A stretch of 64,000 nucleotides of DNA from an uncultured Solirubrobacterales bacterium (GTDB taxonomy: Bacteria > Actinomycetota > Thermoleophilia > Solirubrobacterales > JBBDJG01), in NCBI GenBank assembly GCA_963826005.1, contig CAWGVJ010000014.1:14017-78016 (forward strand), written 5' to 3'. This document shows, piece by piece, positions 2,527 through 64,000 of this stretch; the stretch's first letter is position 1, and each line of letters starts with the position of its first letter. A program made the translations under genes and the position numbers. The notes beneath the pieces were generated by a model. The model was not told the origin of the DNA. It searched no databases and saw nothing but the letters and a program-made list of their open reading frames with translations.

Positions 2527-2574
2527 CGCGGCCAGCCTATACAGGAGGAGGGGTGCCCGCCTCCCGCGCCAGGA

Positions 2575-15532: not shown

Positions 15533-18053
<2,521 letters not shown>

Positions 18054-18057
<4 letters not shown>

Positions 18058-41421: not shown

Positions 41422-42080
41422 GGCCGATCAGGATAGGCGAGAGCCTCGAGCGCCTCGTCCTTTGCACGGAAGGCCTGGAACCGTACGAGCCGTCCGCCCT
41501 GCTGCGTGTATACGTGCGCCCAGTGCTCCTCGATCACGATGCCGCTGCCCTGCGCCGTGCCCCTCACGTCGAGCTCGACAAGCACGGCATCGCCGATCGG
41601 GACGAAAGCCATCGGCACGAAGGTGAATTCCTCCCATACCTCCATCGAGGCGTCGAAGAACTGCCGCATGCCCTCCGGGCCGGTGAAGGTCTGCATCATC
41701 GACTGCTCGAGCGGAACGAACTCGGCGTCCGGCTCCAACATCTTCACCAGCGAATCGACGTCGCTCCGGTTCCAGGCCGCGTAGCCGGCGAGGATCGTCT
41801 CGATCGCGGTGCGCCAGCTCTCCCCCTCGGTGAGCCCCGCGTCCTCGAGCGCTTCGGCGCGCAGGGTGTAGGGCCGGTGGAGCACGATCTTGCCGGCGCA
41901 CACCTCCACGAGCAGCGCGCCGCGCTGGTTGAGCTCGATCCCGCTGCCCTTCGCGCGGCCCACGTGGTGCTGGAAGAGCACGACACGGTCGCCGACCTCG
42001 ACCAGCGCCTCGATCTCGACATCCCCCCGTGCCCACGCATCGGTTCCGCGCCGCACGACTTCGATGCTCGGGGAGGGCAT
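41418..42080 (-). CDS. two-module NTF2/SnoaL-like protein (truncated first module fused to a complete second module)
   Basis: 220-aa [23 protein letters not shown] joins directly to a C-terminal half ...[14 protein letters not shown] full module follows: [20 protein letters not shown]...[17 protein letters not shown]. Its stop overlaps the ask ATG (ATGA). Confidence 0.75.
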
Positions 42081-46153: not shown

Positions 46154-46224
46154 TGGCCACTAGATAAATGGACCGTGCACCCGTCGTCGAAAACGGGCCC
46201 CCAGGCGTGTCAGCTGCGTTGTGG

Positions 46225-46325
46225 CTCCAGCCAGGCTGTTCCGCGGCGCATAGAGAAGACCGCTTAAGGCTGCTTCCTTCCGGATCTGACCTGGTTCACG
46301 GGACTCCATCGCGCGGGACCTGGCC
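46225..46325 (-). ncRNA. ffs: signal recognition particle RNA (small 4.5S type)
   Basis: Minus strand reads ..GTGAACCAGGTCAGATCCGGAAGGAAGCAGCCTTAAGCGG.., the conserved domain-IV motif with GGAA tetraloop. The flanks GCCAGG...CCTGGC can pair. Ends are approximate. Confidence 0.7.
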
Positions 46326-46451
46326 ATCAACGCCTCGCGCGGCGTACTGGCCCTGAAAGCCGAACCCTCGGACGGGAATTCAGCCCCGCTAGAGCGGATT
46401 ACGGGTGCAGGGCACCGCTAGCGCCCCGCCTAGCACGGTCCGGTGCGAACT

Positions 46452-49920: not shown

Positions 49921-49992
49921 GGGCGCGTAGCTCAGCGGGAGAGCGCTCGCTTCACACGCGAGAGGTCGCTGGTTCGATCCCAGCCGCGCCCA
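49921..49992 (+). tRNA. tRNA-Val (anticodon CAC)
   Basis: Hand-folded cloverleaf: acceptor GGGCGCG/CGCGCCC, D arm GCTC-AGCGGGA-GAGC, anticodon arm CTCGC-TTCACAC-GCGAG, variable AGGTC, T arm GCTGG-TTCGATC-CCAGC, discriminator A. CCA is not encoded. Confidence 0.95.
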
Positions 49993-50006: not shown

Positions 50007-50435
50007 TCAGGAGGAGTCGGCGTGAGCGTCTTGCTCCGACAGCCCCACGGCTTCGAGGGCTTCCGAGCGCTCGCGGAACACCGCGACCCGAACGATCTTG
50101 TTCTGCCGAATCCAGACCGCGTTGTAGGAACGCCTCGTTACCTCGACTCCGCTGCGCCGACCGACCCCTCGGTGATCGACAGCCGCGACCACCGCCTCAT
50201 TGACCGGGATCAGCTCGACAACGTCGAGTCGATAGTTCGGAGCAAAGGTGCGAAACCAGCTTCCGAACCACTCGCCTACGGCGTCGGCTCCACGGTAGAC
50301 GCCTGGATCGACTGCCACGTCCTCCGACACGACGAGCTCGATGCTCGGGTCGAAACTTTGCATGGCCACGTTGAATCTCCGAGCGTTGGTGTTCTCGAAA
50401 TGCTCGCGCACGATCTCCACGTTCTCCTGCGACAT
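50007..50435 (-). CDS. NTF2/SnoaL-like cassette A (intact, 142 aa)
   Basis: MSQENVEIVREHFENTNARRF...RSEALEAVGLSEQDAHADSS. The stop lies 14 nt after the tRNA-Val 3' end. Confidence 0.8.
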   Translation of the reverse strand: MSQENVEIVREHFENTNARRFNVAMQSFDPSIELVVSEDVAVDPGVYRGADAVGEWFGSWFRTFAPNYRLDVVELIPVNEAVVAAVDHRGVGRRSGVEVTRRSYNAVWIRQNKIVRVAVFRERSEALEAVGLSEQDAHADSS

Positions 50436-50438
50436 CGC

Positions 50439-50834
50439 CTACTCCAAGAGCCCGAGGGCTTCGAGGGCTTCGTCCCTGGCCCAGAAGGCCTGACGCCTCG
50501 TGATTAGGCCCTCCGCGAACCCGACCACCCACCAGTCGCGGAGCTCGGCGGGCAAGCCGCTGCCTTTACCGCGCCCGGTGCGAACGAATGCAACCAGGAG
50601 CCGGTCATCACCCAAGTCCGTTATCTCCCCGACCTCGATGCGGATGTCCTCGATGACGTCGAATAACTCCGCGACCCACTCGCGCACCTCCGCCCGTCCG
50701 CGGTACACATCTCTAAACCCGGGGAAGGGGGAGCTGCTCCGGGACTCCCATACGACGTCAGGGCTGAGAAAAGCCACGAAGGCATCGAAGTCGCGGCGGT
50801 TGACAGCGTCGGTCGCTTCACGTAGTAGCTCCAC
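50439..50834 (-). CDS. NTF2/SnoaL-like cassette B (131 aa from GTG; canonical ATG replaced by ATT)
   Basis: In-frame ISEQN-VELLREATDAVNRRDFDAF...RDEALEALGLLE. The TAG stop is 3 nt before the cassette A ATG (J2). Confidence 0.7.
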   Translation of the reverse strand: MELLREATDAVNRRDFDAFVAFLSPDVVWESRSSSPFPGFRDVYRGRAEVREWVAELFDVIEDIRIEVGEITDLGDDRLLVAFVRTGRGKGSGLPAELRDWWVVGFAEGLITRRQAFWARDEALEALGLLE

Positions 50835-50928
50835 GTTTTGCTCAGAAATACGCCTTCACCCGGCCCTCAAATGGCTATTTCATGGGTCGCGTGTGACGAC
50901 GCCGTCGTCATGGTCTCTCCTGCGACAT
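50835..50928 (-). pseudogene. truncated cassette remnant (start module only)
   Basis: The J1 start half gives ATG at 50928 and MSQERP-stop, then about 70 nt of unrelated filler before cassette B. Confidence 0.6.
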
Positions 50929-50951
50929 CGCCCGCGCAGTATCCCGCAGGC

Positions 50952-51367
50952 TCAGGAGTCGGCGTGAGCGTCTTGCTCCGACAGTCCCACGGCTTCGAGG
51001 GCTTCGTTGTGTTCGCGAAAGATTCGGATGCGCCTGATCTTGCCCTCGGCAAAGTCATAGACATTTGCGCTATGCAGGTCAACGGCCAGGCCGCTGGTTC
51101 GCCCAGTCGCGGTGGCGTGCAGAAAGGCGAGGACTTGGGTCCCGCCATCGCCTCCAAGCGTTTGATCTCGACTCGGAAGTCGAGAGCGAGTCCTCAACGT
51201 CGCCCAGAACCGCCGAATAGCGCCCTGTCCGTGGTACAGGCCCCCGATCGCCGCCCACGGCGTTCGCAACTCGAAGTCTCGGTGCAGCAGCTGAGATAGC
51301 GGTCGAGGTCCCGCTCATTGAGCGCCGCAACAGCTCGCTCCACAAGTTCCACGTTCTCTTGCGACAT
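50952..51367 (-). pseudogene. NTF2/SnoaL-like cassette D, frame-disrupted
   Basis: MSQENVELVERAVAALNERDLDRYLSCCTE, then a shift to ..TPWAAIGGLYHGQGAIRRFW...VYDFAEGKIRRIRIFREHNEALEAVGLSEQDAHADS. 416 nt. Confidence 0.65.
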
Positions 51368-51390
51368 CGCCCGCGCAGTATCCCGCAGCG

Positions 51391-51812
51391 TCAGGAGTCG
51401 GCGTGAGCGTCTTGCTCGGACAGCCCCACGGCTTCGAGGGCCTCGGCCCTGCTTGTGAATCCCTGGCCCCGCATGAGCCTGCCGTCTCGCACCGCAACTA
51501 CGTGCCAGATGTGCCAGCTGACATCCACGCCGCTCTGCTTGCCACGGCCCCGCATGGTCACAGAGACGAGCAGCTGATCGCCCGCCTCGATGATCTCGTG
51601 GACCTCGATGTGGGGCTCGTCGAACTCTTCCCTGAACCAGCTTAGGAACCGCCTGAGTCCCTCATGCCCCCGTACGCACCCGCGAAGCCGGGGATCGTCC
51701 CCGTTGAGAGGTACTCGGCATCTGGAGCGATGTCCGCAACCACGGCGTCGAGATCGCCCCGGTTGAACGCCTCGTAGACTCGCTGCACCACCTCCACGTT
51801 CTCCTGCGACAT
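51391..51812 (-). pseudogene. NTF2/SnoaL-like cassette E, one frame change near 51670
   Basis: MSQENVEVVQRVYEAFNRGDLDAVVADIAPDAEY..., then ...FLSWFREEFDEPHIEVHEIIEAGDQLLVSVTMRGRGKQSG...AEALEAVGLSEQDAHADS. 422 nt. Confidence 0.65.
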
Positions 51813-51816
51813 CGCC

Positions 51817-52218
51817 TTACTCCGACAGCCCGGCGGCTTCCAGGGTCTCTTCGCGGGTTGCGAAGGACTGGATGCGCACGAACTTGCTCGCGCGAAGCGT
51901 GTACAAGACGGCCCAACGCCGCTCAAACGGCGCACCGCTTCCCCTCCCGTGTCCTCGCTCGTGATGGACGACGAGGACCCGATCCTCACCGGCGTCGACG
52001 ATCTCGATCGGCTCCAGCGAGTACTCGTCCCAAGTGCCCCAGTAATCGCGGTAGTAGTCGACCACGGCGCTCTTGCCATGCATGTGCTCGGGGTGGTCGG
52101 GGAAGAGCGAGGACAGCGAAGCGTCGAGCTCGACCTCCTCGTCGAGCACATCGAAGAACCCGCTCGGATCGCCCGATCGGTAGATGCTCCGCACGATCTC
52201 CACGTTCTCCTGCGACAT
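51817..52218 (-). CDS. NTF2/SnoaL-like cassette F (intact, 133 aa)
   Basis: MSQENVEIVRSIYRSGDPSGFFDVL...TREETLEAAGLSE. TAA, then a 4-nt spacer before the cassette E ATG. Confidence 0.8.
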   Translation of the reverse strand: MSQENVEIVRSIYRSGDPSGFFDVLDEEVELDASLSSLFPDHPEHMHGKSAVVDYYRDYWGTWDEYSLEPIEIVDAGEDRVLVVHHERGHGRGSGAPFERRWAVLYTLRASKFVRIQSFATREETLEAAGLSE

Positions 52219-52241
52219 CGCCCGCGCAGTATCCCGCAGGC

Positions 52242-52657
52242 TCAGGAGTCGGCGTGAGCGTCTTGCTCCGACAGCCCCACGGCTTCGAGGGCCTCGTCGC
52301 TGGTCGTTGTAGAGTCGATCCGCGTGACCTTGCCGTCTCGGATGGTCGAGACCATGGCGTCCCGGCGTTCGACGCTAACGCCGCTACCGCGTCCGATGGC
52401 CCGCATGAGAAAGAGCGAGACCACCTGATCGCCCGCGTCAACGAGGCGCTCCAACTTCATCGCATAGCTCCCGAACGTCTCGCCCCAGTTGGTCAGCCAC
52501 TCCGTGTACCCGGCCAGACCGTGATAGCGTGCCCGCGTCCGGGATGTCGTGGTCGTAGACCTCGATCTCGCGGTCGAATGACGTCCCAGAGAGGCTCGCC
52601 GGTCTCGTCAAAGTGATCGTGGAATCGGCGCGCAATCTCGACGTTCTCCTGCGACAT
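52242..52657 (-). pseudogene. NTF2/SnoaL-like cassette G, at least 2 frame changes
   Basis: MSQENVEIARRFHDHFDETGEPLWDV.., FDREIEVYDHDIPDAGT.., MKLERLVDAGDQVVSLFLMRAIGRGSG...SDEALEAVGLSEQDAHADS. Confidence 0.65.
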
Positions 52658-52680
52658 CGCCCGCGCAGTATCCCGCAGGC

Positions 52681-53097
52681 TCAGGAGTCGGCGTGAGCGT
52701 CTTGCTCCGACAGCCCCACGGCTTCGAGGGCCTCGGCCCGCGTCTCGAAGGTGCGCCACCAGACGCACTTCCCGCGCCGCCACCGGCCCACGTACCAGAC
52801 CGTCTCGTCCAACGGCACGTCGCTACCCGCGCCGTGGCCGCGCAGGTGCAGAGTCGCCACCGTCAGGTCCCCAACGTCGCGGACTTCGCCAACCTCGATG
52901 GTGAAGTCGGGGATGGCGCTGAGCAGGTCGTTCCACCAGCGGCGGACTCCTTCGTGACCGTGATAGCTGCCCTCCATGCGAGCCGCCCGCGGGACGCCCT
53001 CCACGTCATCGTCCGTCAGCGCCAGACTGGCGTCGAGGTCGCGCCGGTTGAAGGCGTCGAAGGCTCGGTAAGTCAGTTCCACGTTCTCCTGCGACAT
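52681..53097 (-). CDS. NTF2/SnoaL-like cassette H (intact module; read through from cassette I)
   Basis: MSQENVELTYRAFDAFNRRDLDASLALTDDDV...MEGSYHGHEGVRRWW...RAEALEAVGLSEQDAHADS. Confidence 0.8.
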   Translation of the reverse strand: MSQENVELTYRAFDAFNRRDLDASLALTDDDVEGVPRAARMEGSYHGHEGVRRWWNDLLSAIPDFTIEVGEVRDVGDLTVATLHLRGHGAGSDVPLDETVWYVGRWRRGKCVWWRTFETRAEALEAVGLSEQDAHADS

Positions 53098-53505
53098 CGC
53101 CCGCTCCGACAGCCCCACGGCTTCGAGGGCCTCGGCTTTGTCGTTGTAGGTCGCTACCCGCACGGCCTTTCCGTCGCGGACGGTCCACACCTGGGTCAGT
53201 TGAGCCTCAACCTCGGCACCACTTCCCTTGCCGCGCGTGTGTACACGCAAGACGACGACAACGCGATCCCCACCTACTTCGATGAAGTCCTCAGGTTCCA
53301 TCCGCACGTATTCCCAGAGTCTCGAAGAATCCGCAAGGAGATTTCGGATGGCTGCACGGCCGTAATACGTTCCGGCGTAGGGGCCAATCGCAGCCGTGAT
53401 GTCGTATTCGGCGTCGGGATGGACATGTTCGAGGAGGGCGTCCAAGCCTGCGCGGCTGAACGCCTCAAGGGCCCGGCGCACAAACTCCACGTTCTCCTGC
53501 GACAT
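53098..53505 (-). CDS. NTF2/SnoaL-like cassette I (intact module lacking a stop, fused in frame to H)
   Basis: MSQENVEFVRRALEAFSRAGLDALLEHVHPDAEY...KAEALEAVGLSE-RA-MSQENVELT. The J2 TAG is replaced by CGG at 53101-53103. Confidence 0.75.
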
Positions 53506-53528
53506 CGCCCGCGCAGTATCCCGCAGGC

Positions 53529-53958
53529 TCAGGAGTCGGCGTGAGCGTCTTGCTCCGACAGCCCCACGGCTTCGAGCGCTGCCGCTCGGTCCTCTCCGAA
53601 GTACGTCCACTCGACGGGCTTGCCGTCTCGGAACGTCGTATACGTTCCAGACGTATGCCTCAACCTCGACGCCGCTCGCCTTCCCCCGACCGCCCGTCCG
53701 GATGAACGCCAGCACCTTGTCGCCTGCGTCGATCAGTTCCTTGGGTTCGCCAACGGGTGCGTCCCCCTTCGCACCAGCTCCATCTCGCGCTTCGAACCAG
53801 GCCCGCGCCTTGTCGCGACCACGCAGAAGCACCGGGTCATGAGCCGCCGCGAGAAGTCGAACGACGGCCTCGGGCGGGATCAGGTCCCAAATCGCCTCGT
53901 CCCCTTGGTCGGCCAACGCGTACATGCGCCGCACGACCTCCACGTTCTCCTGCGACAT
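53529..53958 (-). pseudogene. NTF2/SnoaL-like cassette J, frame change near 53640
   Basis: MSQENVEVVRRMYALADQGDEAIWDLIPPEAVV...ELIDAGDKVLAFIRTGGRGKASGVEVEAYVWNVY, then a shift to ..DRAAALEAVGLSEQDAHADS. Related to the cassette at 63356..63775. Confidence 0.65.
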
Positions 53959-54031
53959 CGCCCGCGCAGTATCCCGCAGGCTTCAGAAGTCGGCGTGAGC
54001 GTCTTGGGACCGCCCTCTAAGCCGTCGCGTC

Positions 54032-54217
54032 TCAATCGCCGTCATGGATGCTCCGAAAAGCAGCCCAGAGACCACACCTTCCAGCAGGCTGAAGGAATCG
54101 TCCCAAAGCACCACCTGGAGGAGTTGCGTAAGGCCTCCAAAGAGGACGGCGTAAGAGAAACAACAGCCAGGGGTGGTCCAACAGGTAGTCGCGCAGGTCC
54201 TTTCGCATCTGCGACAT
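54032..54217 (-). CDS. non-NTF2 61-aa ORF carrying the array start module (MSQ...)
   Basis: MSQMRKDLRDYLLDHPWLLFLLRRPLW.... Preceded by the J1 start half and followed by a degenerate J1 end half (..QDAHADF stop at 53983-53985). Locally lower GC. Coding status is uncertain. Confidence 0.35.
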   Translation of the reverse strand: MSQMRKDLRDYLLDHPWLLFLLRRPLWRPYATPPGGALGRFLQPAGRCGLWAAFRSIHDGD

Positions 54218-54415
54218 CGCCGCGCAGTATCCCGCAGGCTCAGGAGTCGGCGTGACCCGTCCGCTCGAGCCGATCCAGTCGACCCGTGAGGCCTTGCGTA
54301 TTGCGCTTCGGACCGCGTCTCAAGGTCACGAAGGCGGGCCGAATGTCCCGCAGTCTCGGTACGGCCAACGGTCCAGTCGGCTGCCCTAAAAGCACGTCGG
54401 AGGGAGGCCGACTGT

Positions 54416-54712
54416 CTACATGCTGCTCGGCGCCCTCGGTCCCTCTCTGCCCCTGATGACCCAGCGTGCCACGACGAGCACGATGATGACCCCGATGATC
54501 GCGCCGACGATGCCGCCCCAGTCGAACACGTTGGTGTCGCCGATACCGAGACCGACCGTGAAGATCAGGAAACCCATGAGCGCTCCGCCCAGCCCCACGA
54601 GTAGCGACACGCCCCACGATCGCGGGCCAGCCATGTGCTCGAACGGGTCACCAGGCATCAGCACCCTCCCGATCACTCCGGCCACAAAACCGACTAGCAG
54701 CGCTCCGATCAT
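54416..54712 (-). CDS. GlsB/YeaQ/YmgE-family (transglycosylase-associated) small membrane protein
   Basis: Start at ATG 54712 with GGAGGAGGGAG upstream. MIGALLVGFVAGVIGRVLMPG...GLGGALMGFLIF...GGIVGAIIGVIIVLVV. Confidence 0.75.
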   Translation of the reverse strand: MIGALLVGFVAGVIGRVLMPGDPFEHMAGPRSWGVSLLVGLGGALMGFLIFTVGLGIGDTNVFDWGGIVGAIIGVIIVLVVARWVIRGREGPRAPSSM

Positions 54713-54801
54713 TGCGTCTCCCTCCTCCTGCGCGGAGTCCAATCATCGCAGGGCGCCCGTCTCGGACCCAGCGGCGGGCGCGATCTTTCAGAGTCGCAGG
54801 C

Positions 54802-55220
54802 TCAGGAGTCGGCCTGAGCGTCCTGCTCCGACAGGCCTACGGATTCGAGAGCTTCGGCGTGATCTTGGAAGATCTCTTGGTAGAAGATCCTCCGCCTGCG
54901 CCCGTCACGACGTTCGTCATCTCCATGTTCGACTCGGGACCACGGCCTGCGCCGTGCCAGGCGTACCTGAGGACGACTCGGTCGGCAGCGTCAATGAAGT
55001 CGCCGATCGGATGAAGTGTGTCCGTCTCCCAGATCTCGCGGGTCTGCTCGAAGAAGCGCATTACGGCTTCCCGGCCTACGAGGGGCCCCGGTTCCGGCCA
55101 CATGCTGGGAGGCCGCAAGATGACCTCTTTTGGACGGTAAAACGCGCTGAAGGCCTCCATGTCTCCTGCGTTCCACGCAGCGTACGCGGCACGGACGATC
55201 TCCACGTTCTCCTGCGACAT
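54802..55220 (-). pseudogene. NTF2/SnoaL-like cassette K, frame change near 54890
   Basis: MSQENVEIVRAAYAAWNAGDMEAF...WPEPGPLVGREAVMRFFEQTREIWETDTL.... C-terminus ..IFQDHAEALESVGLSEQDAQADS lies in another frame. Confidence 0.65.
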
Positions 55221-55223
55221 CGC

Positions 55224-55617
55224 CTACTCCTGCAGCCCCACGGCTTCGAGGGCCGCGTCCCGGCTGTTGAAGTTGCGCCACCAGATGCCTTCCCGTCCCG
55301 CCACCTGTGCACCAGCCAAACCATGTCCTCGGTGGGGACGTCGCTACCGGCGCCATGGCCGCGAAGAATCACGGCTGCGACGTCAGGTCTCCAAGGTCGC
55401 GCACTTCGACGACCTCGCCCGTGTAGTCGGGGAAGACGTCGAACAGGCTTTTCCACCACCGGCGGATTCCGCCGTGGCCGTCGTAGTTGCCCTCCATGGC
55501 GGCAACCAGGGGGAAGGCCTGCACGTCATCGTCCATCAGCGCCAGAGAGGCGTCGAGGTCCTGCCGGTTGAAGGCGTCAGCGGCTCGGTAAACCAGCTCC
55601 ACGTTCTCCTGCGACAT
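55224..55617 (-). pseudogene. NTF2/SnoaL-like cassette L, 2 frame changes
   Basis: MSQENVELVYRAADAFNRQDLDASLALMDDDV...MEGNYDGHGGIRRWW..., AAVILRGHGAGSDVP.., ..RDAALEAVGLQE. Confidence 0.65.
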
Positions 55618-55620
55618 CGC

Positions 55621-56019
55621 CTACTCCGACAAGCCGACGGCCAGGAGGGCTTGATCAGGGTCTGGAACGCCCGCATGTAGACCATCCTTCCATGGCGGAA
55701 CTGGGCCACATAACCCGCCGCCGACTCGGTTTCGACGCCGCTGCCCTTGCCGCGGTAGCGCAGCCGCCAACGACAACCACGACATCGCCCGCCGCGAGAA
55801 CGTCATCGATGTCGGTTCGCAGAAACTCCCACGCATCGCTGAGGTCGTTCACGTATCGCCTCAGCCCGTCGTGGCCGTGGTAGACGCCCCCTTCGCCAAG
55901 TTGAGCCAAGAACGAATGCCACTCGATTTCCGGATCGGTCAGCTCGATCAGACGCGCGACGTCCTGTCGGGCGACAGCATCTATGACGGCCGACGCAGCT
56001 CCACGTTCTCCTGCGACAT
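55621..56019 (-). pseudogene. NTF2/SnoaL-like cassette M, several compensating frame changes
   Basis: MSQENVE, shift, AASAVIDAVARQDVARLIELTDPEIEWHS...YHGHDGLRRYV...VVVVG, shift, ..GKGSGVETES.., shift, ..DQALLAVGLSE. Confidence 0.6.
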
Positions 56020-56022
56020 CGC

Positions 56023-56417
56023 CTACTCCGACAGGCCGACGGCTTCGAGGGCTTCCGGTGATCCCAGAAGAACTCAACCAGGATGGTCTTGCCCTTGCGC
56101 ACCGTAATGACGGAGGTGACCTCGATCTTCAGGTCAGGACCACTGCCTTCGGCACGCCAGACGAACCTCGTGACGACTCGGTCACCCAGGTCGAGGAGTT
56201 CGATCAGTTCAAGGGTGTCGGCGTCGAAGGGCTCACGTTGCTGCTCCCATAGGCGCATGACTGCATCTCGGCCCGTGAAAGGCTCGGATCCTTCCGGCCA
56301 GCCATCCGCATACCGCACGACGACGTGCGGGTCGAACGAGTCGCCGAACGCGCCCATGTCTCCGGCGTTCCAAGCCTCGAAGGCGGCCCGCACGATCTCC
56401 ACGTTCTCCTGCGACAT
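56023..56417 (-). pseudogene. NTF2/SnoaL-like cassette N, one frame change near 56060
   Basis: MSQENVEIVRAAFEAWNAGDMGAF...VITVRKGKTILVEFFWDH, then a shift to ..EALEAVGLSE. Confidence 0.7.
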
Positions 56418-56420
56418 CGC

Positions 56421-56818
56421 CTACTCCGAGAGGCGGGCGGCTTTGAGGGCTTCGTCACGGTCGCGGAAGAAGTCCACGCGTACGGCCCTGCCGTGGCGGA
56501 GCGTGACGACCTGGTAGAGGAAGTCCTCTCCTCCGGCCCGCTGGCCCTTCCGCTGCCCCGGAGGTGCATGAGGGTGAACAGTCTGTCGCCGCCGTCGATG
56601 AGCTCTTCGGGGTCGATCCGAAAATCACCAAATACGTCGCGAAGCATCCGCCAGAACGTTTTCACGCCCTCATGGCCGTGATGGATCTCGCCATCGGGTG
56701 CAACGCGCGTCAGGTCGAACACCACATCCGGGTCCATCGTTGCGAGGGCGGCATCCCAGTCGCCTCGGTTATAGGCCGCTTGAGCACGCATGAGCGTTGC
56801 CACGTTCTCCTGCGACAT
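56421..56818 (-). pseudogene. NTF2/SnoaL-like cassette O, frame change near 56540
   Basis: MSQENVATLMRAQAAYNRGDWDAALATMDPDVVFD...LMHLRGSGRASG, shift, ..VVTLRHGRAVRVDFFRDRDEALKAARLSE. Confidence 0.65.
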
Positions 56819-56841
56819 CGCCCGCCCAGTATCCCGGAGGC

Positions 56842-57271
56842 TCAAGAGTGGGTGCGAGCGTCCTGCTCCGACAGGCCGAGTGTTCCGAGGGCTTCGGCGT
56901 GATCCCGGATGACCTCCACGCCGACGATCTTGCCCTTGCGCACGGTAAGGACGTGCGTAGGACCGAATGTCTCGACTCCGGGCCACGGCCTGCGGCCCGC
57001 CAGACGTGACCGCACCGCAACGCGGTCGCCAGGCGTCGATGAAGTCGCTGGATTCAGTTCCAGGGTGTCGGCGTCCCAGGTGTCGCGGAGTTGTTTGACC
57101 TGGCGCATGACCGCGTCCCGACCCATCGAAGCTCGCGGCCGCTGCTCCGGCCAGATCGTCCGGCATCCGCACGACGACGTGGGGTCGTACAGCTCACAGA
57201 GGGCGTCCATGTCCCCTGCGTTCCACGCCTCGAAGGCGGCTCGCACGACTCTCCACGTTCTCCTGCGACAT
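56842..57271 (-). pseudogene. NTF2/SnoaL-like cassette P, several frame changes
   Basis: MSQENVE, shift, RAAFEAWNAGDMDALCELYDP...GRDAVMRQVKQLRDTWDADTLE...LTVRKGKIVGVEVIRDHAEALGTLGLSEQDARTHS (variant J1). Confidence 0.6.
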
Positions 57272-57294
57272 CGCCCGCGCAGTATCCCGCAGGC

Positions 57295-57743
57295 TCAGGG
57301 GTCGGCGTGAGCGTCTTGCTCCGGCAGCCCCACGGCTTCGAGGGCCTCATCCGGGTCCCGAAACGACCGGAAGTGAATGATTTTCCCATCTCGGAACGTC
57401 CAGACGTAAGCGACCGGCCCCTCCAACTCGATGCCGGTGTACCGCGCCTTCGATCGCGTTCGGTGGACGGAGACGAGGCGATCACCCTCGCCAACGATTT
57501 GCTCCAACTCGACCAGCAGCCACTCCGAGCCCTCGACCCAGCGTTTCGCTGCCCGAGCGACACCCTCATGGCCGCGATACGACTCGCCAATGTGGTCCGG
57601 CAAAGTCGTGTCCTCGTAAACGACATCGGGGTCCAGGAAGGACATATCGATGATCGATCCCTGTTGCCATGCATCGAGCGTCCATGGCTCCCGAGGCCAC
57701 GTCTCCAAGAATGCTCGAAGGTTCTCCCCTTCTCCTGCGACAT
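57295..57743 (-). pseudogene. divergent NTF2/SnoaL-like cassette Q, one frame change near 57725
   Basis: MSQEKG, shift, ENLRAFLETWPREPWTLDAWQQGSIIDMSFLDPDVVYED...YRGHEGVARAAKRW...FRDPDEALEAVGLPEQDAHADP. First gene after R-element copy 1. Confidence 0.65.
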
Positions 57744-58010
57744 CGCCCGCGCAGTATCCCGCCTTGCGGTGCTCCGGCCGATGGCACCCACGTCCGTCCT
57801 ATTGCCGACCGGACTCGGTTTTGGGCACTGGCGGCTTCAGTGCCCATATCCGCATACATCCAGCCGTATCCGGCCCCATTTCGGTCGGGCGGCGCGGATC
57901 GTTCCGTGCCTCAGGTTCGCGGTGTAGAGCGGGAAAACGGCGGCTTCGTCCCTTCCCGGTCGTCGCGCTTCACACGCGAGAGGTCGCTGGTTGGATCCCA
58001 GCCGCGCCCA
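57744..58010 (+). repeat. R element copy 1 ending in a direct repeat of the tRNA-Val 3' part
   Basis: 57958..58010 is ggtcgtcgcgcttcacacgcgagaggtcgctggttGgatcccagccgcgccca. The last 45 nt equal tRNA positions 49948..49992 with one mismatch. The preceding degenerate D-arm-like gtagagcgggaaaac cannot form a cloverleaf. Hairpin GGGCACTG-gcggctt-CAGTGCCC at 57823..57845. Confidence 0.85.
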
Positions 58011-58056
58011 TCGAAGAAACGCCTGCGAGGCGTCCGTCTCCGATGCAGGACCGTTC

Positions 58057-58161
58057 TCAGCCGACCCTCGTCGGCGGGAGCGTTTGGGCATCAGCCCCGA
58101 CTGCTCGGCTAGAGATGCGGCCTGAAGGCGGCTGCTGGTAGGCCACGTTCTGCTGCGACAT
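58057..58161 (-). pseudogene. truncated cassette remnant abutting tRNA repeat 1
   Basis: MSQQNVAYQQPPSGRISSRAVGADAQTLPPTRVG stop. Only the start module is family-like. Confidence 0.5.
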
Positions 58162-58596
58162 CGCCTGCTCCGAGAGGCCCGCGGCTTCAAGGGCCTCGCG
58201 CGTGTCGAGATAGTGCCGTTGATCGATGATCTGGCCGTCCTTGAGCGTGTAGACGATAGTGAACTGAAGGTCGACAGAAGCACGGCTCCCCTTGCCTCTC
58301 GCGGACTGACGCACGACTGCGACGACACGGTCATCGCCAGCGTCAATGATCTTCTCGAGCCCGATTCTCCATTCCACGAAATCCTCGAGCCAGGCGCGAA
58401 GGAACTCGGCGAAATCCTTCTCGGCCAACGTAGGTCTTGTAGGGCGGATGCTTCACGCGCGGGCGAGGGTGGACGCGCAGGCATCGAGGCCCTGGTCGAA
58501 GACGGCGTCGGAGGCAATGGCCGGATCGCCCTGGTCAATGCCTTCCGTGAACAGGTCCCAGGCTCGCCGCACGATCTCCACGTTCTCCTGCGACAT
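58162..58596 (-). pseudogene. NTF2/SnoaL-like cassette S, 2 compensating frame changes and no stop (TAG replaced by CAG)
   Basis: MSQENVEIVRRAWDLFTEGIDQGDPAIASDAVF.., ..VKHPPYKTYVGREGF.., AEFLRAWLEDFVEWRIGLEKIIDAGDDRVVAVV...TREALEAAGLSE-QA-MSQQNV. Confidence 0.6.
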
Positions 58597-58599
58597 CGC

Positions 58600-59058
58600 C
58601 TACTCCGACAGCCCGACGGCTTCGAGGGCCTCGGCGCGTTCCAGATAGTCGTCCAATCGGATGATCAGGCCGTCCTCCACGGTGACGATCGTGAAGATCG
58701 TTGCGTTGACTTCGATGTCGCTTGTCTTTCCCTTCATCGCCAGTCGCAGCACCGCGAGAACTTGGCTGTCGCTGAGATCGGTGACCTCAAGGACGGTGAC
58801 CCGGGAGTCCTGGGCGGCATCCAGCATCTGATCGACACCACGCGCTGCGTCCTCGCAACCGCGGGCGGTGATACCGATAAGGGCCGACTTCCACTCGATA
58901 TTCGGATGCAAGTAGCGCATCGCGTCCGCGAACTCGGGCGAGACCTCACCCGCCCTCAGGCTGTCCGCAACGGAACGAGGGGCTTGCCAGTAGGCGGCAA
59001 AGGCTCGTTCCACTGCCTCGAAGTAGCGCCGCACGATCTCCACGTTCTCCTGCGACAT
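58600..59058 (-). CDS. NTF2/SnoaL-like cassette T (intact, 152 aa, long subfamily)
   Basis: MSQENVEIVRRYFEAVERAFAAYWQAPRS...LERAEALEAVGLSE. Confidence 0.8.
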   Translation of the reverse strand: MSQENVEIVRRYFEAVERAFAAYWQAPRSVADSLRAGEVSPEFADAMRYLHPNIEWKSALIGITARGCEDAARGVDQMLDAAQDSRVTVLEVTDLSDSQVLAVLRLAMKGKTSDIEVNATIFTIVTVEDGLIIRLDDYLERAEALEAVGLSE

Positions 59059-59103
59059 CGCCCGCGCAGTATCCCGCAGCCTCAGGAGTCAGTCGTGAGC
59101 GTC

Positions 59104-59502
59104 CTACTCCGACAGCCCCACGGCTTCGAGGGCATCCTCGCGCCAGGGAAGAGTTCGAAACGGACAGCTTGCCGTCCCGCATGGTCCGAAGATGTGCGAC
59201 ACGTATCTCGACGTCACGTGCCACTGCCCCTGGGTCGGGAATCGTACCCGCACGAATACCACGATCGATCGCCACGCAGGAGAACTGTTCTGGCTCTCAG
59301 GGACCACTTCGTCGAACGCGGCCAGTTCATCCTCAAGGGCGCGCCTGACTTCCTGGCCCCCGCGATACGTTCCGATCCTAGGGTCCCGATCCGGATCCGA
59401 TATTCGAAGTCCGGGTGCGTATCACGGAAGACGGCGTCACAGTCGTCCGCGACCGATGGCCTCGTACACCCCGCGGAGCGTCTCAACGTCTGCCTGCGAC
59501 AT
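59104..59502 (-). pseudogene. NTF2/SnoaL-like cassette U, several frame changes
   Basis: MSQADVETLRGVYEAIGRG.., DAVFRDTHPDFEYRI.., ..VAIDRGIRAG.., ..REDALEAVGLSE followed by TAG inside an otherwise J1-type junction. Confidence 0.55.
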
Positions 59503-59525
59503 CGCCCGCGCAGTATCCCGCAGGC

Positions 59526-59944
59526 TCAGGAGTCGGCGTGAGCGTCTTGCTCGGACAGCCCCACGGCTTCGAGGGCTTCCGCGTGATCCCAGAAGAACTC
59601 CATGGTCGAAGATCTTGCCCTTGCGCACCGTGTAGACGCCCGTCATCTCCAAGTTCGACGTCAGGACCGTGGCCTGCGCCACGCCAGATGAACCTCACGG
59701 CAACTCGGTCGGCGCCGTCGATGAAGTCGCTGATCGGTTCCAGGGCGTCGGCGTCCCAGGTCTCGCGCAGTTGCTCCAACTGGCGCATGACCGCCTCCCG
59801 ACCCACGAACGGCCCCGGCTCCGGCCAACCCTCCGCGGCCCGCACGATGACGTCCGGGTCGTAGAGCTCGCGAAGGGCATCCATGTCCCCCGCGTTCCAC
59901 GCCTCGAAGGCGGCTCGCACGATCTCCACGTTCTCCTGCGACAT
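59526..59944 (-). pseudogene. NTF2/SnoaL-like cassette V, 2 frame changes near the C-terminus
   Basis: MSQENVEIVRAAFEAWNAGDMDALRELYDPDVIVRAAEGWPEPGPFVGREAVMRQLEQLRETWDADALE..., then ..LEMTGVYTVRKGKIF.., then ..FFWDHAEALEAVGLSEQDAHADS. Confidence 0.7.
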
Positions 59945-59947
59945 CGC

Positions 59948-60343
59948 CTACTCCGACAGCCCCACGGCTTCGAGGGCGAGCCGCTTCGACATGTAGCCGA
60001 CCGCGCGCGTGATGCGGCCACCTTTGACGGTCACCACCGATGCCCAGGGAGCATCGAATCGGATCCCGGTCTGCCGGAAATGACCGATGAAGCGCTGCAC
60101 GGTGAGGAAGTTCTCGCCGTCCACCGGGCTGATCTCCTCGACCCGCATCGCAAAATCGGAGAACGCCTCCTCCAGATCGCTCCACCAGCGCCGCAGGCCC
60201 TCGTGACCGTGATACGTCGCTTCGAGCGCCCAACCTTTGGCGTTCACGATCTCGAGGTCCGGAGCCCAGAGCGCCTCAGCGAATTCCCCGCGCTCGATTG
60301 CCTCTCCCCAGCGCCGGACTATCTCCACGTTCTCCTGCGACAT
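59948..60343 (-). CDS. NTF2/SnoaL-like cassette W (intact, 131 aa)
   Basis: MSQENVEIVRRWGEAIERGEFAEALWAPDLEIV...YHGHEGLRRWW...KRLALEAVGLSE. First gene after R-element copy 2. Confidence 0.8.
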   Translation of the reverse strand: MSQENVEIVRRWGEAIERGEFAEALWAPDLEIVNAKGWALEATYHGHEGLRRWWSDLEEAFSDFAMRVEEISPVDGENFLTVQRFIGHFRQTGIRFDAPWASVVTVKGGRITRAVGYMSKRLALEAVGLSE

Positions 60344-60607
60344 CGCCCGCGCAGTATCGCCGCCTAACGGTGCGCCTGCCTATGGACCGCGTCCGTCTAT
60401 TGCGAACCAGACTCGGTTTGGGCACTGGCGGCTTCCAGTGCCCATATCCGCATACATCCAGCCGTATCCGGCGGCATTTCTTCAAGCGGCGCGGTTCGTG
60501 TCCCGCGCCGCGTTCGGCAGCGCAAAGCGGGAAACGACGACTGTGCGCCTTTCGGGTCGTCGCGCTTCACACGCGAGAGGTCGCTGGTTCGATCCCAGCC
60601 GCGCCCA
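60344..60607 (+). repeat. R element copy 2 ending in a direct repeat of the tRNA-Val 3' part
   Basis: 60555..60607 ggtcgtcgcgcttcacacgcgagaggtcgctggttcgatcccagccgcgccca, with 45/45 identity to the tRNA 3' part. Hairpin GGGCACTGG-cggctt-CCAGTGCCC at 60420..60443. Confidence 0.85.
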
Positions 60608-60622
60608 TGTCGGGTCGCCTAT

Positions 60623-61980
60623 TTACGCCGGCAGGCGACGTTCATGCACTGCAGCGGGTCGCCATTGCCGAAGGCCCTGTTCCCGCCGCCGTCGAGCACG
60701 CCCGCGATCGCCTCGATGCCGAGATCGAAGTTCGAGCTAGCCCTGTTCGCCACCAGGGCGACCTTGTCGCTCCTCACGTCGATCCCGTCGTCACCGTTTC
60801 GATCCGTGCGGTTGCCGCGCAGCTCGGAGACCTGGATGTGCGTATCCGGATCCGATCATCTCCCGGCCGAAGTGGATGCCGTCCACGCCATTCTTAACCG
60901 AGCGGTTTCCGGCGATGACCATGCCGCCCTGCGTCCTCGTACAGGATCTCGATGAAGATCCCGTGTCCAGAGTTGCTGCGAAGAAGGTTCGATGCGACGG
61001 CGTTGCGGCGGCTCTCGCCGCTGATCACGATCCCGCCGAGACCGCCGTTCTCGACGATCCGGTTTCCGGCAATCCGGTTGTCCTCGCTCTCCCCCACCGT
61101 GATTCCGCCCGACCAGTTGATCGGATGTGGAGGCCGTCGGGGCATTGCGAGAAATGATGTTCCGCTCCACCCGGTTTCGTCTGCGCTCCCTCGCTCATGT
61201 CTATGCCGGTGGAGCCGTTGTCCCACACACGATTGCCCTCGATGGAATTCTCGGAGGCCCCGTCCACGAGGCTGATCCCGGCACCGCGATTCGCGAAGGA
61301 GCGATTTCCCCTGATCGACAGGTTTCTGGTGCTAAAGAGGAACAGGCCGATGCCGTTGCCGAACGCGACATTGTCCTCCAGTCGGTCTCCAGCGACACCG
61401 CCGGCAAGCTCGATCCCGAAGCCGGAGTTTCGGCCTATGACGTTCCCGGTGATCGTCGTGCGCCCCTGAGGCTCGTAGACCGCGATGCCGGCGCTGTTGT
61501 TGTCCAGCGCGCGGTTGCCCTCTATTCGGCCATTCGACATGAGAGAGGTCGACGATGCCGCCGAAGCCGCTGTTGTCGTGGAGCCGAAGTCGGAGCAACG
61601 AGTTGTGATCCGCGATGATGACCTGAACGCCGTGCGCGAACTCGCGCACGGTGCCGTCTCGGATGGTTACCCCGTCGTGCCCTGCCTCTTGGCCGACTGC
61701 AGCTGTCGAACCGACCGTTCCGAATGCCCGTGTCGCAGCCAAGACCAGGACGAGGATCGCCGTCGCCGTCGACGGTGTGACCGTTCAAATCGAGGGTGAC
61801 GTTGTCGGCCCCGATCACGAGGCCATCGCCGGGGCAGTCGACCAGGTCCGAGTCGAGCGTCGTGTCCTGCGTGATCACGTCGCCGCACTGGACGTGGTTC
61901 GCGAGCGCCTGGCTGCCGTTCGCGAGAAGCGCCGTCACCGTGAGCGCCGTTAGAAGGCCTGGCCAATTGAGTCTGGGCAT
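60623..61980 (-). pseudogene. secreted right-handed parallel beta-helix repeat protein (NosD/CASH-like), multiple frame changes
   Basis: SD GGAGGG plus ATG 61980. MPRLNWPGLLTALTVTALLANGSQALA signal. Repeated ..GN.I..N...GI.. units spread over ORFs 61522..61980, 61332..61742, 61025..61540 and 60894..61226. C-terminus NRASSNFDLGIEAIAGVLDGGGNRAFGNGDPLQCMNVACRRK, TAA at 60625-60623. Confidence 0.7.
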
Positions 61981-62039
61981 CCGTTCCCTCCGTTCGCGAT
62001 CCGACCCTACCGGCGCGGGTAGCGCTGCGGCAAGGGGTC

Positions 62040-62235
62040 AGGCCTTGGGCACTGGCGGCCGTCCGGTGCCCATATCCGCGTAGATCCAGCCGTATCCGGC
62101 ACCATTTCGGTGGGGCGGCCCGGATCGTCCATTGCGTCAGGTTCGCGGCGTAAAGCGGGAAACGGCGACTTCGGGCCTCGTAGGTCGTCGCGCTTCACAC
62201 GCGAGAGGTCGCTGGTTCGATCCCAGCCGCGCCCA
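62040..62235 (+). repeat. R element copy 3 ending in a direct repeat of the tRNA-Val 3' part
   Basis: 62183..62235 has 45/45 identity. It is followed by tcgacgacgatgcctcaggaggagtcggcgtgagcg, the same string that follows the genuine tRNA at 49993. Hairpin GGGCACTGG-cggccgt-CCGGTGCCC at 62047..62071. Confidence 0.85.
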
Positions 62236-62249
62236 TCGACGACGATGCC

Positions 62250-62669
62250 TCAGGAGGAGTCGGCGTGAGCGCCTTGCTCCGACAGCCCCAGAGTTTCGAG
62301 CGCCTCCGTGTGGTCCCAGAAGAACTCCAGGTAGCGGATCTTGCTTTTGCGCACCGTAAACACCGCTGTCATCTCCATGTTCGCCTCAGGGCCATGGCCA
62401 ACCCCACGCCAAACCATCCTCACCACTACCCGGTCGCCGGCGTGGATGAAGCTGATCGCTTCCACGGCGTCGGCATCGAAGGCCTCCCGCTGCCGCTCGA
62501 ACTGGCGCATGACCGCCTCTCGACCTATCAAGGGCCCCGGCTCTGGCCAACCTTCCAAGTCGGTCAGGGTCATGGCGTTCGGGTCGTACAGCTCACGAAG
62601 AGCATCCGTGTCTCCGCTATTCCACGCCTCGTAGGAGGCTCGCACGATCTCCACGTTCTCCTGCGACAT
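62250..62669 (-). CDS. NTF2/SnoaL-like cassette X (intact, 139 aa)
   Basis: MSQENVEIVRASYEAWNSGDTDALRELYDPNAM...WPEPGPLIGREAVMRQFERQREAFDADAVE...FFWDHTEALETLGLSEQGAHADSS. Confidence 0.8.
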   Translation of the reverse strand: MSQENVEIVRASYEAWNSGDTDALRELYDPNAMTLTDLEGWPEPGPLIGREAVMRQFERQREAFDADAVEAISFIHAGDRVVVRMVWRGVGHGPEANMEMTAVFTVRKSKIRYLEFFWDHTEALETLGLSEQGAHADSS

Positions 62670-62672
62670 CGC

Positions 62673-63131
62673 CTACTCCGACAGCCCCACGGCTTCGAGG
62701 GCGTCTCGCCGGTCGAGGTAGTCGTGGATTCGCCACACCAATCCATCGCGCAGGGTCACCACAGTCGACATCCGCGCGCTGACCTCGATTCCGCTGCCCT
62801 TGCCCTTGAGAGCACCATCGACCACGGCGATGACTTGATCGTCATCGCCAGCGATCAGTTCGGCGATCGTCAGGACGTAGCTCTCGGCCGCTTCCAGGAA
62901 CTCATCCCAGGCTTGCGCCACGCCGAGATAGCCTCGGTAGGTCTTGGTCGAAAAGGCAGGCGTCCATTCGAGTTCGGGGTGCACATAGGTCATCAGATCC
63001 TCGGCCTCTGGCGGAAGCGTGCCTGCCTGGAACGTGGCGGCATAGGAGTAGGGCTTCTTCCAGTAGGCCTCCCCGACTCGGGCAGAGGCGTCGAAGAAGC
63101 GCTTCACGATCTCCACGTTCTCCTGCGACAT
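62673..63131 (-). CDS. NTF2/SnoaL-like cassette Y (intact, 152 aa, long subfamily)
   Basis: Start at ATG 63131 within ORF 62673..63218. MSQENVEIVKRFFDASARVGEAYWKKPYS...LDRRDALEAVGLSE. First gene after R-element copy 4. Confidence 0.8.
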   Translation of the reverse strand: MSQENVEIVKRFFDASARVGEAYWKKPYSYAATFQAGTLPPEAEDLMTYVHPELEWTPAFSTKTYRGYLGVAQAWDEFLEAAESYVLTIAELIAGDDDQVIAVVDGALKGKGSGIEVSARMSTVVTLRDGLVWRIHDYLDRRDALEAVGLSE

Positions 63132-63349
63132 CGCCCGCGCAGTATCCCGCCTATCGGTGCGCCTGCCGATGGCGCCCGCGTCCGTCCTGTTCCGGGACGC
63201 AGCCTTATCCAGCCCCATTTCGGTCGGGCGGCCCGGATGCCTAATTGCGCCGCAGTGCCCGGTGCCAAGCCGGAAACGGTGATTTCGTGCCTTTCGGGTC
63301 GTCGCGCTTCACACGCGAGAGGTCGCTGGTTCGATCCCAGCCGCGCCCA
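63132..63349 (+). repeat. R element copy 4 (hairpin segment missing) ending in a direct repeat of the tRNA-Val 3' part
   Basis: 63297..63349 has 45/45 identity. The upstream part shares ccatttcggtcgggcggcccggat and ..ccggaaacggtgatttcgtgcctttcgggtcgtc with the other copies. Confidence 0.8.
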
Positions 63350-63355
63350 CCTCGG

Positions 63356-63775
63356 TCAGCGACCGTCGTCTGACTTCTTCAACCCGGCAGCTTCCAGGGC
63401 CGCCGTTCGATCATCCCCGAAGTACTCCTGTGCGATGGGCTTTCCATTACGGAATGTCCACACGTGCGCGACATGGGCCTCGACTTGGGCCCCACTCTCT
63501 TTGCCCTTGCCGCTTGTCCTCATGAACGCGACCACTTTGTCGTCTGCGTCGATCAGCTCTTCGGGTTCCCAGCGGTTCGTCCCCTCCTCCCATGCCTCAC
63601 GCCCACTGTTGATGTAGGCACGCACCTGGTCACGACCGCGCACCACTGTCGGCTCTATCTGGCGGCGCGAGGCGTCCATGACGAATTCCGGCGTGACTAG
63701 GTCCCAAACTGTTTCGTCCCCGCGATCAATTAAGGCGTAGACACGCCGCACGATCTCCACGTTCTCCTGCGACAT
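63356..63775 (-). CDS. NTF2/SnoaL-like cassette AA (intact, 139 aa)
   Basis: MSQENVEIVRRVYALIDRGDETVWDLVTPEFVMD...VWTFRNGKPIAQEYFGDDRTAALEAAGLKKSDDGR. The stop lies 6 nt after tRNA repeat 4. Confidence 0.8.
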   Translation of the reverse strand: MSQENVEIVRRVYALIDRGDETVWDLVTPEFVMDASRRQIEPTVVRGRDQVRAYINSGREAWEEGTNRWEPEELIDADDKVVAFMRTSGKGKESGAQVEAHVAHVWTFRNGKPIAQEYFGDDRTAALEAAGLKKSDDGR

Positions 63776-63778
63776 CGC

Positions 63779-64000
63779 CTACTCCGACAGCCCCACGGCT
63801 TCGAGGGCTTCGGCCCGCGTGTCGGAAGGTGCGCCACCAGACGCACTTCCCGCGCCGCCACCGGGACGTTCCACGGGGATCGTCCTCTGCAAGGGATGTC
63901 GCTACCCGCGCCGTGGCCGCGTTGGCGCAGGGCGCGAGCGTCGATGTCTCCGAAGGTCCTGCACTCTCGACGACCTCGACGGTGAAGTCGGGAAAGATTT
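63779..64000 (-). pseudogene. NTF2/SnoaL-like cassette AB, C-terminal part only (window end), with indels relative to cassette H
   Basis: Ends ..AEALEAVGLSE TAG (63781-63779), 3 nt before the cassette AA ATG. The nucleotide sequence is alignable to 52720..52920 with gaps. Confidence 0.55.

Follow-up and report, generated by a model that had tools for sequence, protein, structure and literature searches.

We analyzed a 64,000-nt stretch of a contig from an uncultured Solirubrobacterales bacterium (the window), in which a tandem array of genes for NTF2-like proteins is punctuated by a recurrent junction, J1. The array runs on the minus strand and extends past the window end at position 64000. 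A first-pass annotation had described J1 as a roughly 60-nt portable boundary and regarded the segment at 53959–54830 as an argument for a dedicated cassette mechanism. Its sequence statements on this segment are present in the window, with coordinates off by 1–2 nt. The features of the array and the segment are as follows (ORF, open reading frame; SD, Shine-Dalgarno sequence; HMM, hidden Markov model).

49921–49992, plus strand: tRNA-Val(cac), directly adjoining the 3′ end of the last array gene
50007–64000, minus strand: NTF2 array with about 26 unit starts (11 J1, 12 J2, and 3 head junctions)
53959–53982, minus strand: spacer (1 extra A) and module before the next NTF2 unit (ATG at 53958)
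53983–54217, minus strand: two-helix membrane protein gene (MSQ-MRKDL...SQDAHADF), about 79 amino acids, containing the 61-amino-acid ORF and ending in a J1 tail
54218–54235, minus strand: promoter-like module GCGGGATACTGCGCGG-CG before the two-helix gene, with a G-run 1 nt shorter (GCGCGG-CG)
54233–54255, minus strand: right copy of a 23-nt direct repeat, TCACGCCGACTCCTGAGCCTGCG, an incomplete J1 end half that no NTF2 gene precedes
54256–54794, minus strand: inserted segment of 539 nt without NTF2 similarity (no NTF2 HMM match)
54396–54412, minus strand: terminator-like hairpin and T-run just 3′ of the yeaQ stop codon
54416–54712, minus strand: gene for a GlsB/YeaQ/YmgE-type small membrane protein (98 amino acids) with its own SD (GGAGGAGGGAG)
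54795–54817, minus strand: left copy of the 23-nt direct repeat, TCA[G/C]GCCGACTCCTGAGCCTGCG, by sequence reading
54802–54825, minus strand: J1 end half (tail CAGGACGCTCAGGCCGACTCCTGA, QDAQADS plus stop codon) closing the NTF2 unit that starts at 55220

J1 is a composite of three parts: a tail that belongs to the upstream NTF2 gene (QDAHADS plus stop codon), an 8-nt spacer, and a module, GCG[AG]GATACTGCGCGGGCG-ATG, which comprises 19 nt and the start codon of the downstream gene. The tail side is referred to below as the end half and the module as the start half. The 12 copies of the shorter junction J2 read ..GGGCTGTCGGAG TAG GCG ATGTCGCAGGAGAACGTGGAG (short form GGAG-TAG-GCG-ATG), with the GGAG of the last codons located 6 nt 5′ of the ATG. 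In the 11 copies of J1, the TAG of J2 is replaced by CAAGACGCTCACGCCGACTCCTGA GCCTGCGG GATACTGCGCGG. J1 thereby lengthens the upstream protein by the peptide QDAHADS, which accounts for the two length classes (131 and 138 amino acids) among 2775 homologs. The three head junctions (57743, 60343, and 63131) have only GCGGGATACTGCGCGGGCG-ATG in common with J1. The counts of these motifs in the window were far above chance: the 47-nt J1 core matched 7 times with at most 3 mismatches (0 expected), the 18-nt module 13 times (0.01 expected), and the start motif 23 times (0 expected). Chance is thus excluded as their origin.

The NTF2 unit that starts at 55220 is followed, after its tail, by GCCTGCG up to 54795, where J1 breaks off. 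The inserted segment consists of an 82-nt leader, an SD, the 98-amino-acid yeaQ-like ORF, the terminator-like hairpin, and approximately 160 nt that matched nothing and held no NTF2 remnant. The two copies of the 23-nt repeat that flank it differ by 1 mismatch. The right copy had been described as an end half of about 17 nt closing the yeaQ segment; an end half is present there, and it covers 23 nt (54255–54233). The yeaQ-like gene and its SD were found as described. The ORF has 785 homologs with E values down to 1e-48, many of them named GlsB/YeaQ/YmgE and some carrying the Pfam domain Transgly_assoc (PF04226); its own match to this domain was below threshold (E = 0.038, 14.7 bits versus a cutoff of 25.3). 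On the basis of its homology to the named members, the ORF encodes a GlsB/YeaQ/YmgE-type membrane protein. Its nearest relatives (79–94% nucleotide identity) are located in ordinary loci without J1 or the module, and their homology to the window segment ends within approximately 46 nt of the ORF. Another yeaQ-like gene (60% amino acid identity) lies in the NTF2 array of locus L007, with boundaries quite different from those in the window.

The sequence before the two-helix gene reads GGATACTGCGCGG-CG and then ATGTCGCAG, with GATACT at 54231–54226 and the ATG at 54217–54215. A J1 start half is therefore present in front of the 61-amino-acid ORF, as had been noted, with a G-run 1 nt shorter. This ORF, which had been listed as lacking family similarity, is indeed unrelated to NTF2; it is the front part of the two-helix gene, which is frameshifted by a T-run 2 nt shorter near 54153–54154. 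The gene ends in the degenerate J1 tail CAAGACGCTCACGCCGACTTCTGA at 54006–53983, where the first-pass annotation had placed it, and the following positions (53982–53938) hold an intact spacer, module, and NTF2 start. An intact homolog (P0121, 94% identical) was found in Illumina soil contigs; the window copy departs from it by a T-run lacking 2 nt, a G-run lacking 1 nt, and an additional A. In three contexts, the two-helix gene retains the module and its MSQ codons, and the tail is kept in only two of them; in locus L207, the gene has its own stop codon and no tail, and the order of its neighbors is permuted relative to the window. The junction is thus separable from NTF2 cargo, flanking both a yeaQ-type gene and a two-helix gene within one array.

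The element is not confined to this locus. The 24-mer GATACTGCGCGGGCGATGTCGCAG occurred exactly in at least 119 stretches of species-representative genomes, and those among the matches listed were nearly all from Solirubrobacterales, Thermoleophilaceae, or unclassified 'Actinomycetes' metagenome-assembled genomes (MAGs). Module copies were counted in the loci among these matches and in the window (122 sequences). The 261 copies were divided into 223 located behind unrelated upstream sequence and 38 located behind a J1 end half, and the information content of the aligned copies falls to zero approximately 4 nt 5′ of GATACT. The module opened an NTF2 gene in 211 of 264 ORFs, and the others were short or frameshifted ORFs and genes for cupin, cation efflux, RTX-repeat, and SRPBCC proteins. 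GNAT and glyoxalase genes behind the module were obtained from metagenomes. When metagenomes were further scanned for non-MSQ starts, with ATG and then any base but T required after the module, 82 matches were obtained, most of them divergent SnoaL subfamilies with quite different N-termini. These results agree with the earlier proposal that the junction adjoins unrelated genes and exceeds the conserved ends of one family. The J1 end half was found 52 times, 46 times behind an NTF2 3′ end and 18 times without a module after it; the latter include array ends and two genes abutting tRNA-Val sequence. Because the start half mostly occurs alone and the end half occurs without the module at array ends, the proposed 60-nt element is two units, each of which can occur independently. 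The portability of the boundary was thereby retained, and its unity was not. Neither the module nor J1 was present in viral contigs, and a phage link was ruled out by this absence. A sequence before a J1 end half in locus L089, at first taken as non-NTF2, was a divergent NTF2 gene ending in ..AAHGG-AHADS and not foreign cargo. The same locus carries an IS-type (insertion sequence) transposase gene (2182–3579, 465 amino acids) that is inserted in the NTF2 array and truncates one unit.

We compared orthologous units between genomes. Where unit bodies are 89–94% identical in nucleotides, each end has J1, J2, or a solo module, depending on the genome. The unit at 59944 is preceded by J2 and followed by J1 in the window, and in L001 it is preceded by a solo module and followed by J2; the unit at 53097 has a tail in the window and none in L052; and the unit at 59058 is preceded by J1, a solo module, or J2 in different genomes. 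A fixed cassette boundary inside J1 could not give rise to this pattern, and exchange within the conserved coding ends could. Within the window, unit interiors are at most 79% identical to each other (60–79%) or not alignable, and the junctions between them are identical. The best external match of each window unit was found in a different genome, with the alignment ending at the unit borders. Furthermore, the tRNA-Trp-adjacent arrays of L002 and L026 have heads that are 88.5% identical and zero units in common. These results indicate that the arrays turn over fast. The conserved head between tRNA-Trp and the first module (L002, 259–444; L026, 3033–3222 in reverse complement) holds the short repeats ACCGCCTGAGA and TTTTTCCCGCG and hairpin-like stretches.

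The first-pass annotation had asked whether the breakpoints of homology always fall at the same nucleotides, and they do not. Foreign or terminal sequence begins after TGA, TGAGC, TGAGCC, TGAGCCT, TGAGCCTGCG, or TGAGCCTGCGGGATAC, so that the breakpoints are spread over approximately 25 nt. The inserts cluster in the 8-nt spacer. This clustering is expected from selection alone because an insert leaves the upstream stop codon and the −10 box both intact only in the spacer.

The spacing in the start half would fit a promoter for leaderless mRNA. GATACT is located 9 nt 5′ of the ATG, with no SD in between. Among 34 core genes of the window, 7 of 8 TANNNT boxes within 60 nt of the first start codon were located at 6–9 nt from it, so leaderless-type gene starts appear to be common in the host, as judged from the sequence. 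The module has this leaderless-gene geometry, given that the spacing of GATACT matches that of the core-gene boxes. Core-gene starts with such boxes are found, for example, at 6214, 6682, 13678, 28506, 31434, and 41421. A sigma-70 scan that required a −35 box gave no promoter in the array. We therefore propose, by inference from sequence, that GCG[AG]GATACTGCGCGGGCG-ATG(TCGCAG) would provide promoter and start for mRNA that is leaderless or nearly so, in a compact module consisting of a −10-like GATACT, a 9-nt GC-rich discriminator, and the start codon. J1 and the head junctions would begin new transcripts within the array, and J2 (..TCGGAG TAG GCG ATG) would instead lead to coupled translation, with GGAG in the final codons as the SD. 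In several copies, the module runs into ATGTCGCAGGAG followed by a stop codon and an SD-led start, or the AGGAG of ATGTCGCAGGAG lies 5–7 nt before another ATG; in those copies, the module probably serves as a short leader. A possible likeness between TGTCGCA-N15-CGTG in the coding start and the ECF41 promoter TGTCACA-N16-CGTC was set aside, as its direction is wrong for expressing the gene.

Taking these results together, we consider J1 to be a composite in which an NTF2 gene tail adjoins a common promoter and start module of the leaderless type, with general recombination reshuffling the parts inside a tRNA-linked island; we give this explanation a probability of approximately 0.55. J1 would be two gene ends back to back, its end half CAAGACGCTCACGCCGACTCCTGA being the 3′ end of the NTF2 'long form' with the QDAHADS tail. 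Units have approximately 20–30 nt of near-identical coding sequence at both ends, which together with the junctions would form identity islands of 75–100 nt. Homologous recombination or gene conversion in these islands would reassort gene bodies and junction types and would also duplicate and delete units, and the diverged gene bodies would act as barriers to exchange. Between the stop codon and the −10 box, where a few bases tolerate insertion, foreign genes would occasionally be trapped, such as the yeaQ gene in the window and the DUF202 and GNAT genes in L002.

Several observations weigh against this explanation. J1 is the most conserved stretch of the arrays, with 97–98% identity over tail, spacer, and module (31 copies in 9 sequences), above that of the flanking coding ends; the tail and spacer are thus as conserved as the module. 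Across species, J1 is conserved at 97–100%. An identical J1 50-mer occurs 14 times in six species, and J1 differences within a genome (2.9/50) are approximately equal to those between genomes (3.5/50). This pattern is predicted neither by a promoter role nor by simple concerted evolution. The rare codons CAA and GCT are kept in the tail, where the third base of CAA is the only variable site. The constancy of J1 across species may be due to a factor that binds the DNA or RNA specifically or to a role of the QDAHADS tail. In regards to the promoter, the first base of GATACT is G and not T as in the core-gene boxes. Moreover, the 9-nt discriminator is invariant and the first 21 coding bases are kept at the nucleotide level, neither of which is needed by a promoter with only a −10 box; they may point to something more specific, for example a regulator, an RNA feature, or a sigma factor. 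The proposal that RecA-type recombination drives the reshuffling is itself based on sequence patterns, and the 23 nt repeated on either side of yeaQ are barely long enough for such exchange.

The J1 conservation could alternatively be without function, reflecting a young junction spread by tandem duplication, gene conversion, and horizontal transfer among related soil bacteria. The variation of J1 is star-like around one consensus, local variants are common to neighboring copies in L002, and the array lies in a tRNA-linked island with a GC content below that of its surroundings, all of which would suit a recent spread. We consider this origin unlikely. Gene bodies beside identical junctions are only 60–79% identical or unalignable, which means that junctions and genes cannot simply be of one age. 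In many species and in soil metagenomes from several projects, the module has also been kept in front of unrelated genes and of SnoaL subfamilies that have diverged deeply, and the near-equality of differences within and between genomes does not fit.

A slightly less probable alternative is that the module acts at the RNA level, either as a processing site at which polycistronic array transcripts would be cut to give leaderless mRNAs or as a binding site of a translational regulator or small RNA for the whole family. Conservation beyond the needs of a promoter, over the discriminator and the first 21 coding bases, would be explained in this way, and by sequence reading a 5-bp inverted repeat, CTGCG..CGCAG, brackets the AUG of the module. 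The module also precedes small detoxification- or stress-type genes in a regulon-like manner. We folded J1 (either strand), J2, and the solo module as RNA and DNA; the folds were no better than those of shuffled sequences (z = −0.4 to −1.0), and at the gathering level Rfam matched only tRNA and signal recognition particle (SRP) RNA in the window and nothing in the array. Furthermore, solo copies behind unrelated sequence or terminator-like hairpins (L058 and L204) need a transcription start of their own, and the −10 geometry fits the leaderless genes of the host, both of which favor a promoter over an RNA-level signal.

An integron-like system, in which a site-specific recombinase acts at a point in the J1 spacer, is improbable. 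In its favor, a 23-nt stretch of the J1 end half is directly repeated on both sides of the yeaQ segment, three independent foreign inserts start within 5 nt of each other (at TGAGC^ or TGAGCCTGCG^), the content of an orthologous array locus is wholly replaced between L002 and L026, J1 is near-identical across species, and the array passes the window end, which leaves room for a distal recombinase. Nevertheless, no single fixed crossover point of the kind found in integrons was observed: the breakpoints scatter, one unit carries differing junction halves in different genomes, and the clustering in the spacer needs no recombinase, as described above. The start half mostly stands alone behind unique sequence, and an attC-like hairpin (an imperfect inverted repeat of 57–141 nt) was dropped as a candidate, no fold being better than the shuffles and no dyad being present. 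No IntI or other recombinase was seen in the window ORFs scanned, of which ten unassigned large ones gave housekeeping or other families and the array, inside which the window ends, holds small ORFs. No recombinase family was matched by two or more of 150 neighbor ORFs from module loci, and the families with at least two members among them were methyltransferases, short-chain dehydrogenases, hydrolases, and similar enzymes. The yeaQ relatives, finally, lack the site. These results do not support a dedicated integron-like cassette mechanism, and the segment at 53959–54830 no longer serves as an argument for one.

An assembly artefact by mis-joining of long reads across the repeat family would agree with the Nanopore origin and many indels of related MAGs and with the frameshifts in about half of the units, and is highly improbable, as the junctions recur in Illumina contigs assembled independently from other samples (there also with the two-helix gene, its module, and its tail) and in more than 100 loci of other MAGs, with units (400–450 nt) far below read length.

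The nearest published concept is promoter reuse by putative mobile promoters in prokaryotes (Nijveen, Matus-Garcia, and van Passel, PMC3575422). As in that case, the module is a near-identical short upstream sequence before non-homologous genes, with many copies per genome and across species. It differs in being only 19 nt plus the first 3–7 codons, in preceding mainly one superfamily in tandem arrays, in having no associated transposable element, and in that its promoter role is putative. Integron cassette arrays, above all those of sedentary chromosomal integrons, in which the attC repeats are near-identical (IntegronFinder papers PMC4889954 and PMC9024848), resemble the J1 arrays in their long, one-directional rows of small genes, the conserved repeat, the complete difference in content between relatives, and the occasional unrelated cargo. 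In the J1 arrays, however, no IntI was found in the scanned ORFs, the repeat is not an imperfect palindrome, and J1 holds a start codon and a promoter-like box instead of lying 3′ of a promoterless ORF; the position of the breakpoints varies, and the halves reassort independently of the cargo.

General recombination swaps variable segments between short conserved flanks in the homology-handle systems, namely the orphan cdiA-CT/cdiI and rhs tip arrays, the 'minimal mobile elements' of Neisseria, and the pilS/vls silent cassettes. The J1 arrays likewise hold many alternatives between such flanks. Their units differ in being complete genes with their own start signals rather than silent partial copies for one expression site: they are full-length ORFs with their own start codons, half of them with their own module, and not the promoterless partial copies of a pilS/vls-type archive. 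The NTF2 arrays also have no evident toxin or surface-antigen role. PADLOC gave no matches for the NTF2, yeaQ, or two-helix proteins, and a defence or immunity island thus received no support from this library. No description of such arrays was found in the literature searched.

The array is further divided by copies of the tRNA-Val 3′ end. An intact tRNA-Val contains the first of five copies of a 45-mer (0–1 mismatch), and four copies are located downstream.

57966–58010, 60563–60607, 62191–62235, and 63305–63349, direct repeats (first copy listed as plus strand): 45-nt copies of the tRNA-Val 3′ end

Each downstream copy is preceded by a conserved arm of approximately 110 nt that runs on into a head junction, and the copies split the array into blocks of approximately 1–8 kb. 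The block between two of the fragments carries, at 61025–61980 on the minus strand, a frameshifted gene for a secreted right-handed beta-helix/NosD-like protein that replaces the NTF2 genes; a relative of this gene adjoins tRNA-Val in L008. The repeat pattern recurs at tRNA-Val in loci of other species (L008, L097, L112, L063, and L082). No integrase was seen in the window, which ends inside the array, or around tRNA-Val in the 8-kb loci L008, L097, and L112. The repeats indicate a probable tandem accretion of integrase-less blocks by repeated site-specific integration at the tRNA gene. Tandem accretion at tRNA genes is known from elements of the ICESt1/ICESt3 type and from actinomycete integrative elements. 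The likeness to CIME-type (cis-mobilizable element) accretion lies in the intact tRNA-Val and the four direct repeats, with arms, of its final 45 nt, from the anticodon stem to the 3′ end; the differences are that whole blocks and not J1 are concerned and that no integrase was found in the window or the 8-kb loci. Approximately 46 tRNA genes of many specificities were present in about 1 Mb of module-bearing loci (L003–L121), a density approximately 4 times the expectation under our estimate of 45–50 tRNA genes per 4-Mb genome. The arrays thus tend to lie in tRNA-linked islands.

A bolder proposal, which we regard as speculative and unlikely, is that J1 is a selected recombination handle of a Solirubrobacterales-wide shuffling platform, in which a 50-nt promoter and homology island captures, expresses, and moves small genes between tRNA-linked arrays and species, either without an integron integrase or with a novel recombinase or regulator. 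Such a platform would be a Gram-positive functional counterpart of integrons. To our knowledge, integrons are reported absent from Actinobacteria; soil actinobacteria nonetheless hold long, fast-changing arrays of small genes with an almost invariant junction. If the junction is a leaderless promoter combined with a homology island, ordinary recombination alone would give a gene family the plasticity of cassettes. An abundant, uncultured soil order would then possess a large co-regulated set of NTF2-like genes, and the 19-nt module would be a compact promoter for Solirubrobacterales. The near-perfect conservation of J1 hints at a specific binding factor.

The remainder of the window is consistent with a high-GC actinobacterial chromosome, with the core genes nrdR, lon, recR, dnaX, ask, and asd read from its sequences and an SRP RNA at 46173–46438 (Rfam). 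The GC content is 64% in the array stretch versus approximately 70% outside. The array cargo scored 31–63 bits against SnoaL_2 (PF12680), above the gathering cutoff of 27, and the closest solved structure was that of the polyketide cyclase IdmH (E = 2e-7). The homologs and matching loci belonged to Solirubrobacterales and Thermoleophilaceae MAGs and to soil metagenomes. Exact-protein look-ups gave no record for the yeaQ ORF (both start choices) or for one NTF2 gene. About half of the array units are frameshifted, often at homopolymers. These frameshifts need not be real, as core genes such as lon (16133–18057) are split too and related MAGs are Nanopore assemblies with many indels; the frameshifts in both the array and the core genes may be sequencing errors and not pseudogenes.

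NTF2 genes, solo or paired and without the exact module, are also found in the core genome at 8135–8533, 37332–37721, and 41439–42059, where a ribonucleotide reductase gene lies just 5′ of one of them, and recR and ask flank another. Besides the arrays, the family thus also has dispersed members in the genome. Two J2 variants on the minus strand have the stop codon replaced (53098–53103, GAG CGG GCG ATG; 58162–58170, GAG CAG GCG ATG) and would join two adjacent NTF2 domains in one protein. At 50847–50928 on the minus strand, one J1 is followed by ATGTCGCAGGAGA, and after approximately 66 nt of different sequence the next NTF2 gene begins with a second, degenerate start (..TCTGAGCAAAACGTGGAGCTA). 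This arrangement looks like a small insertion within the conserved start.

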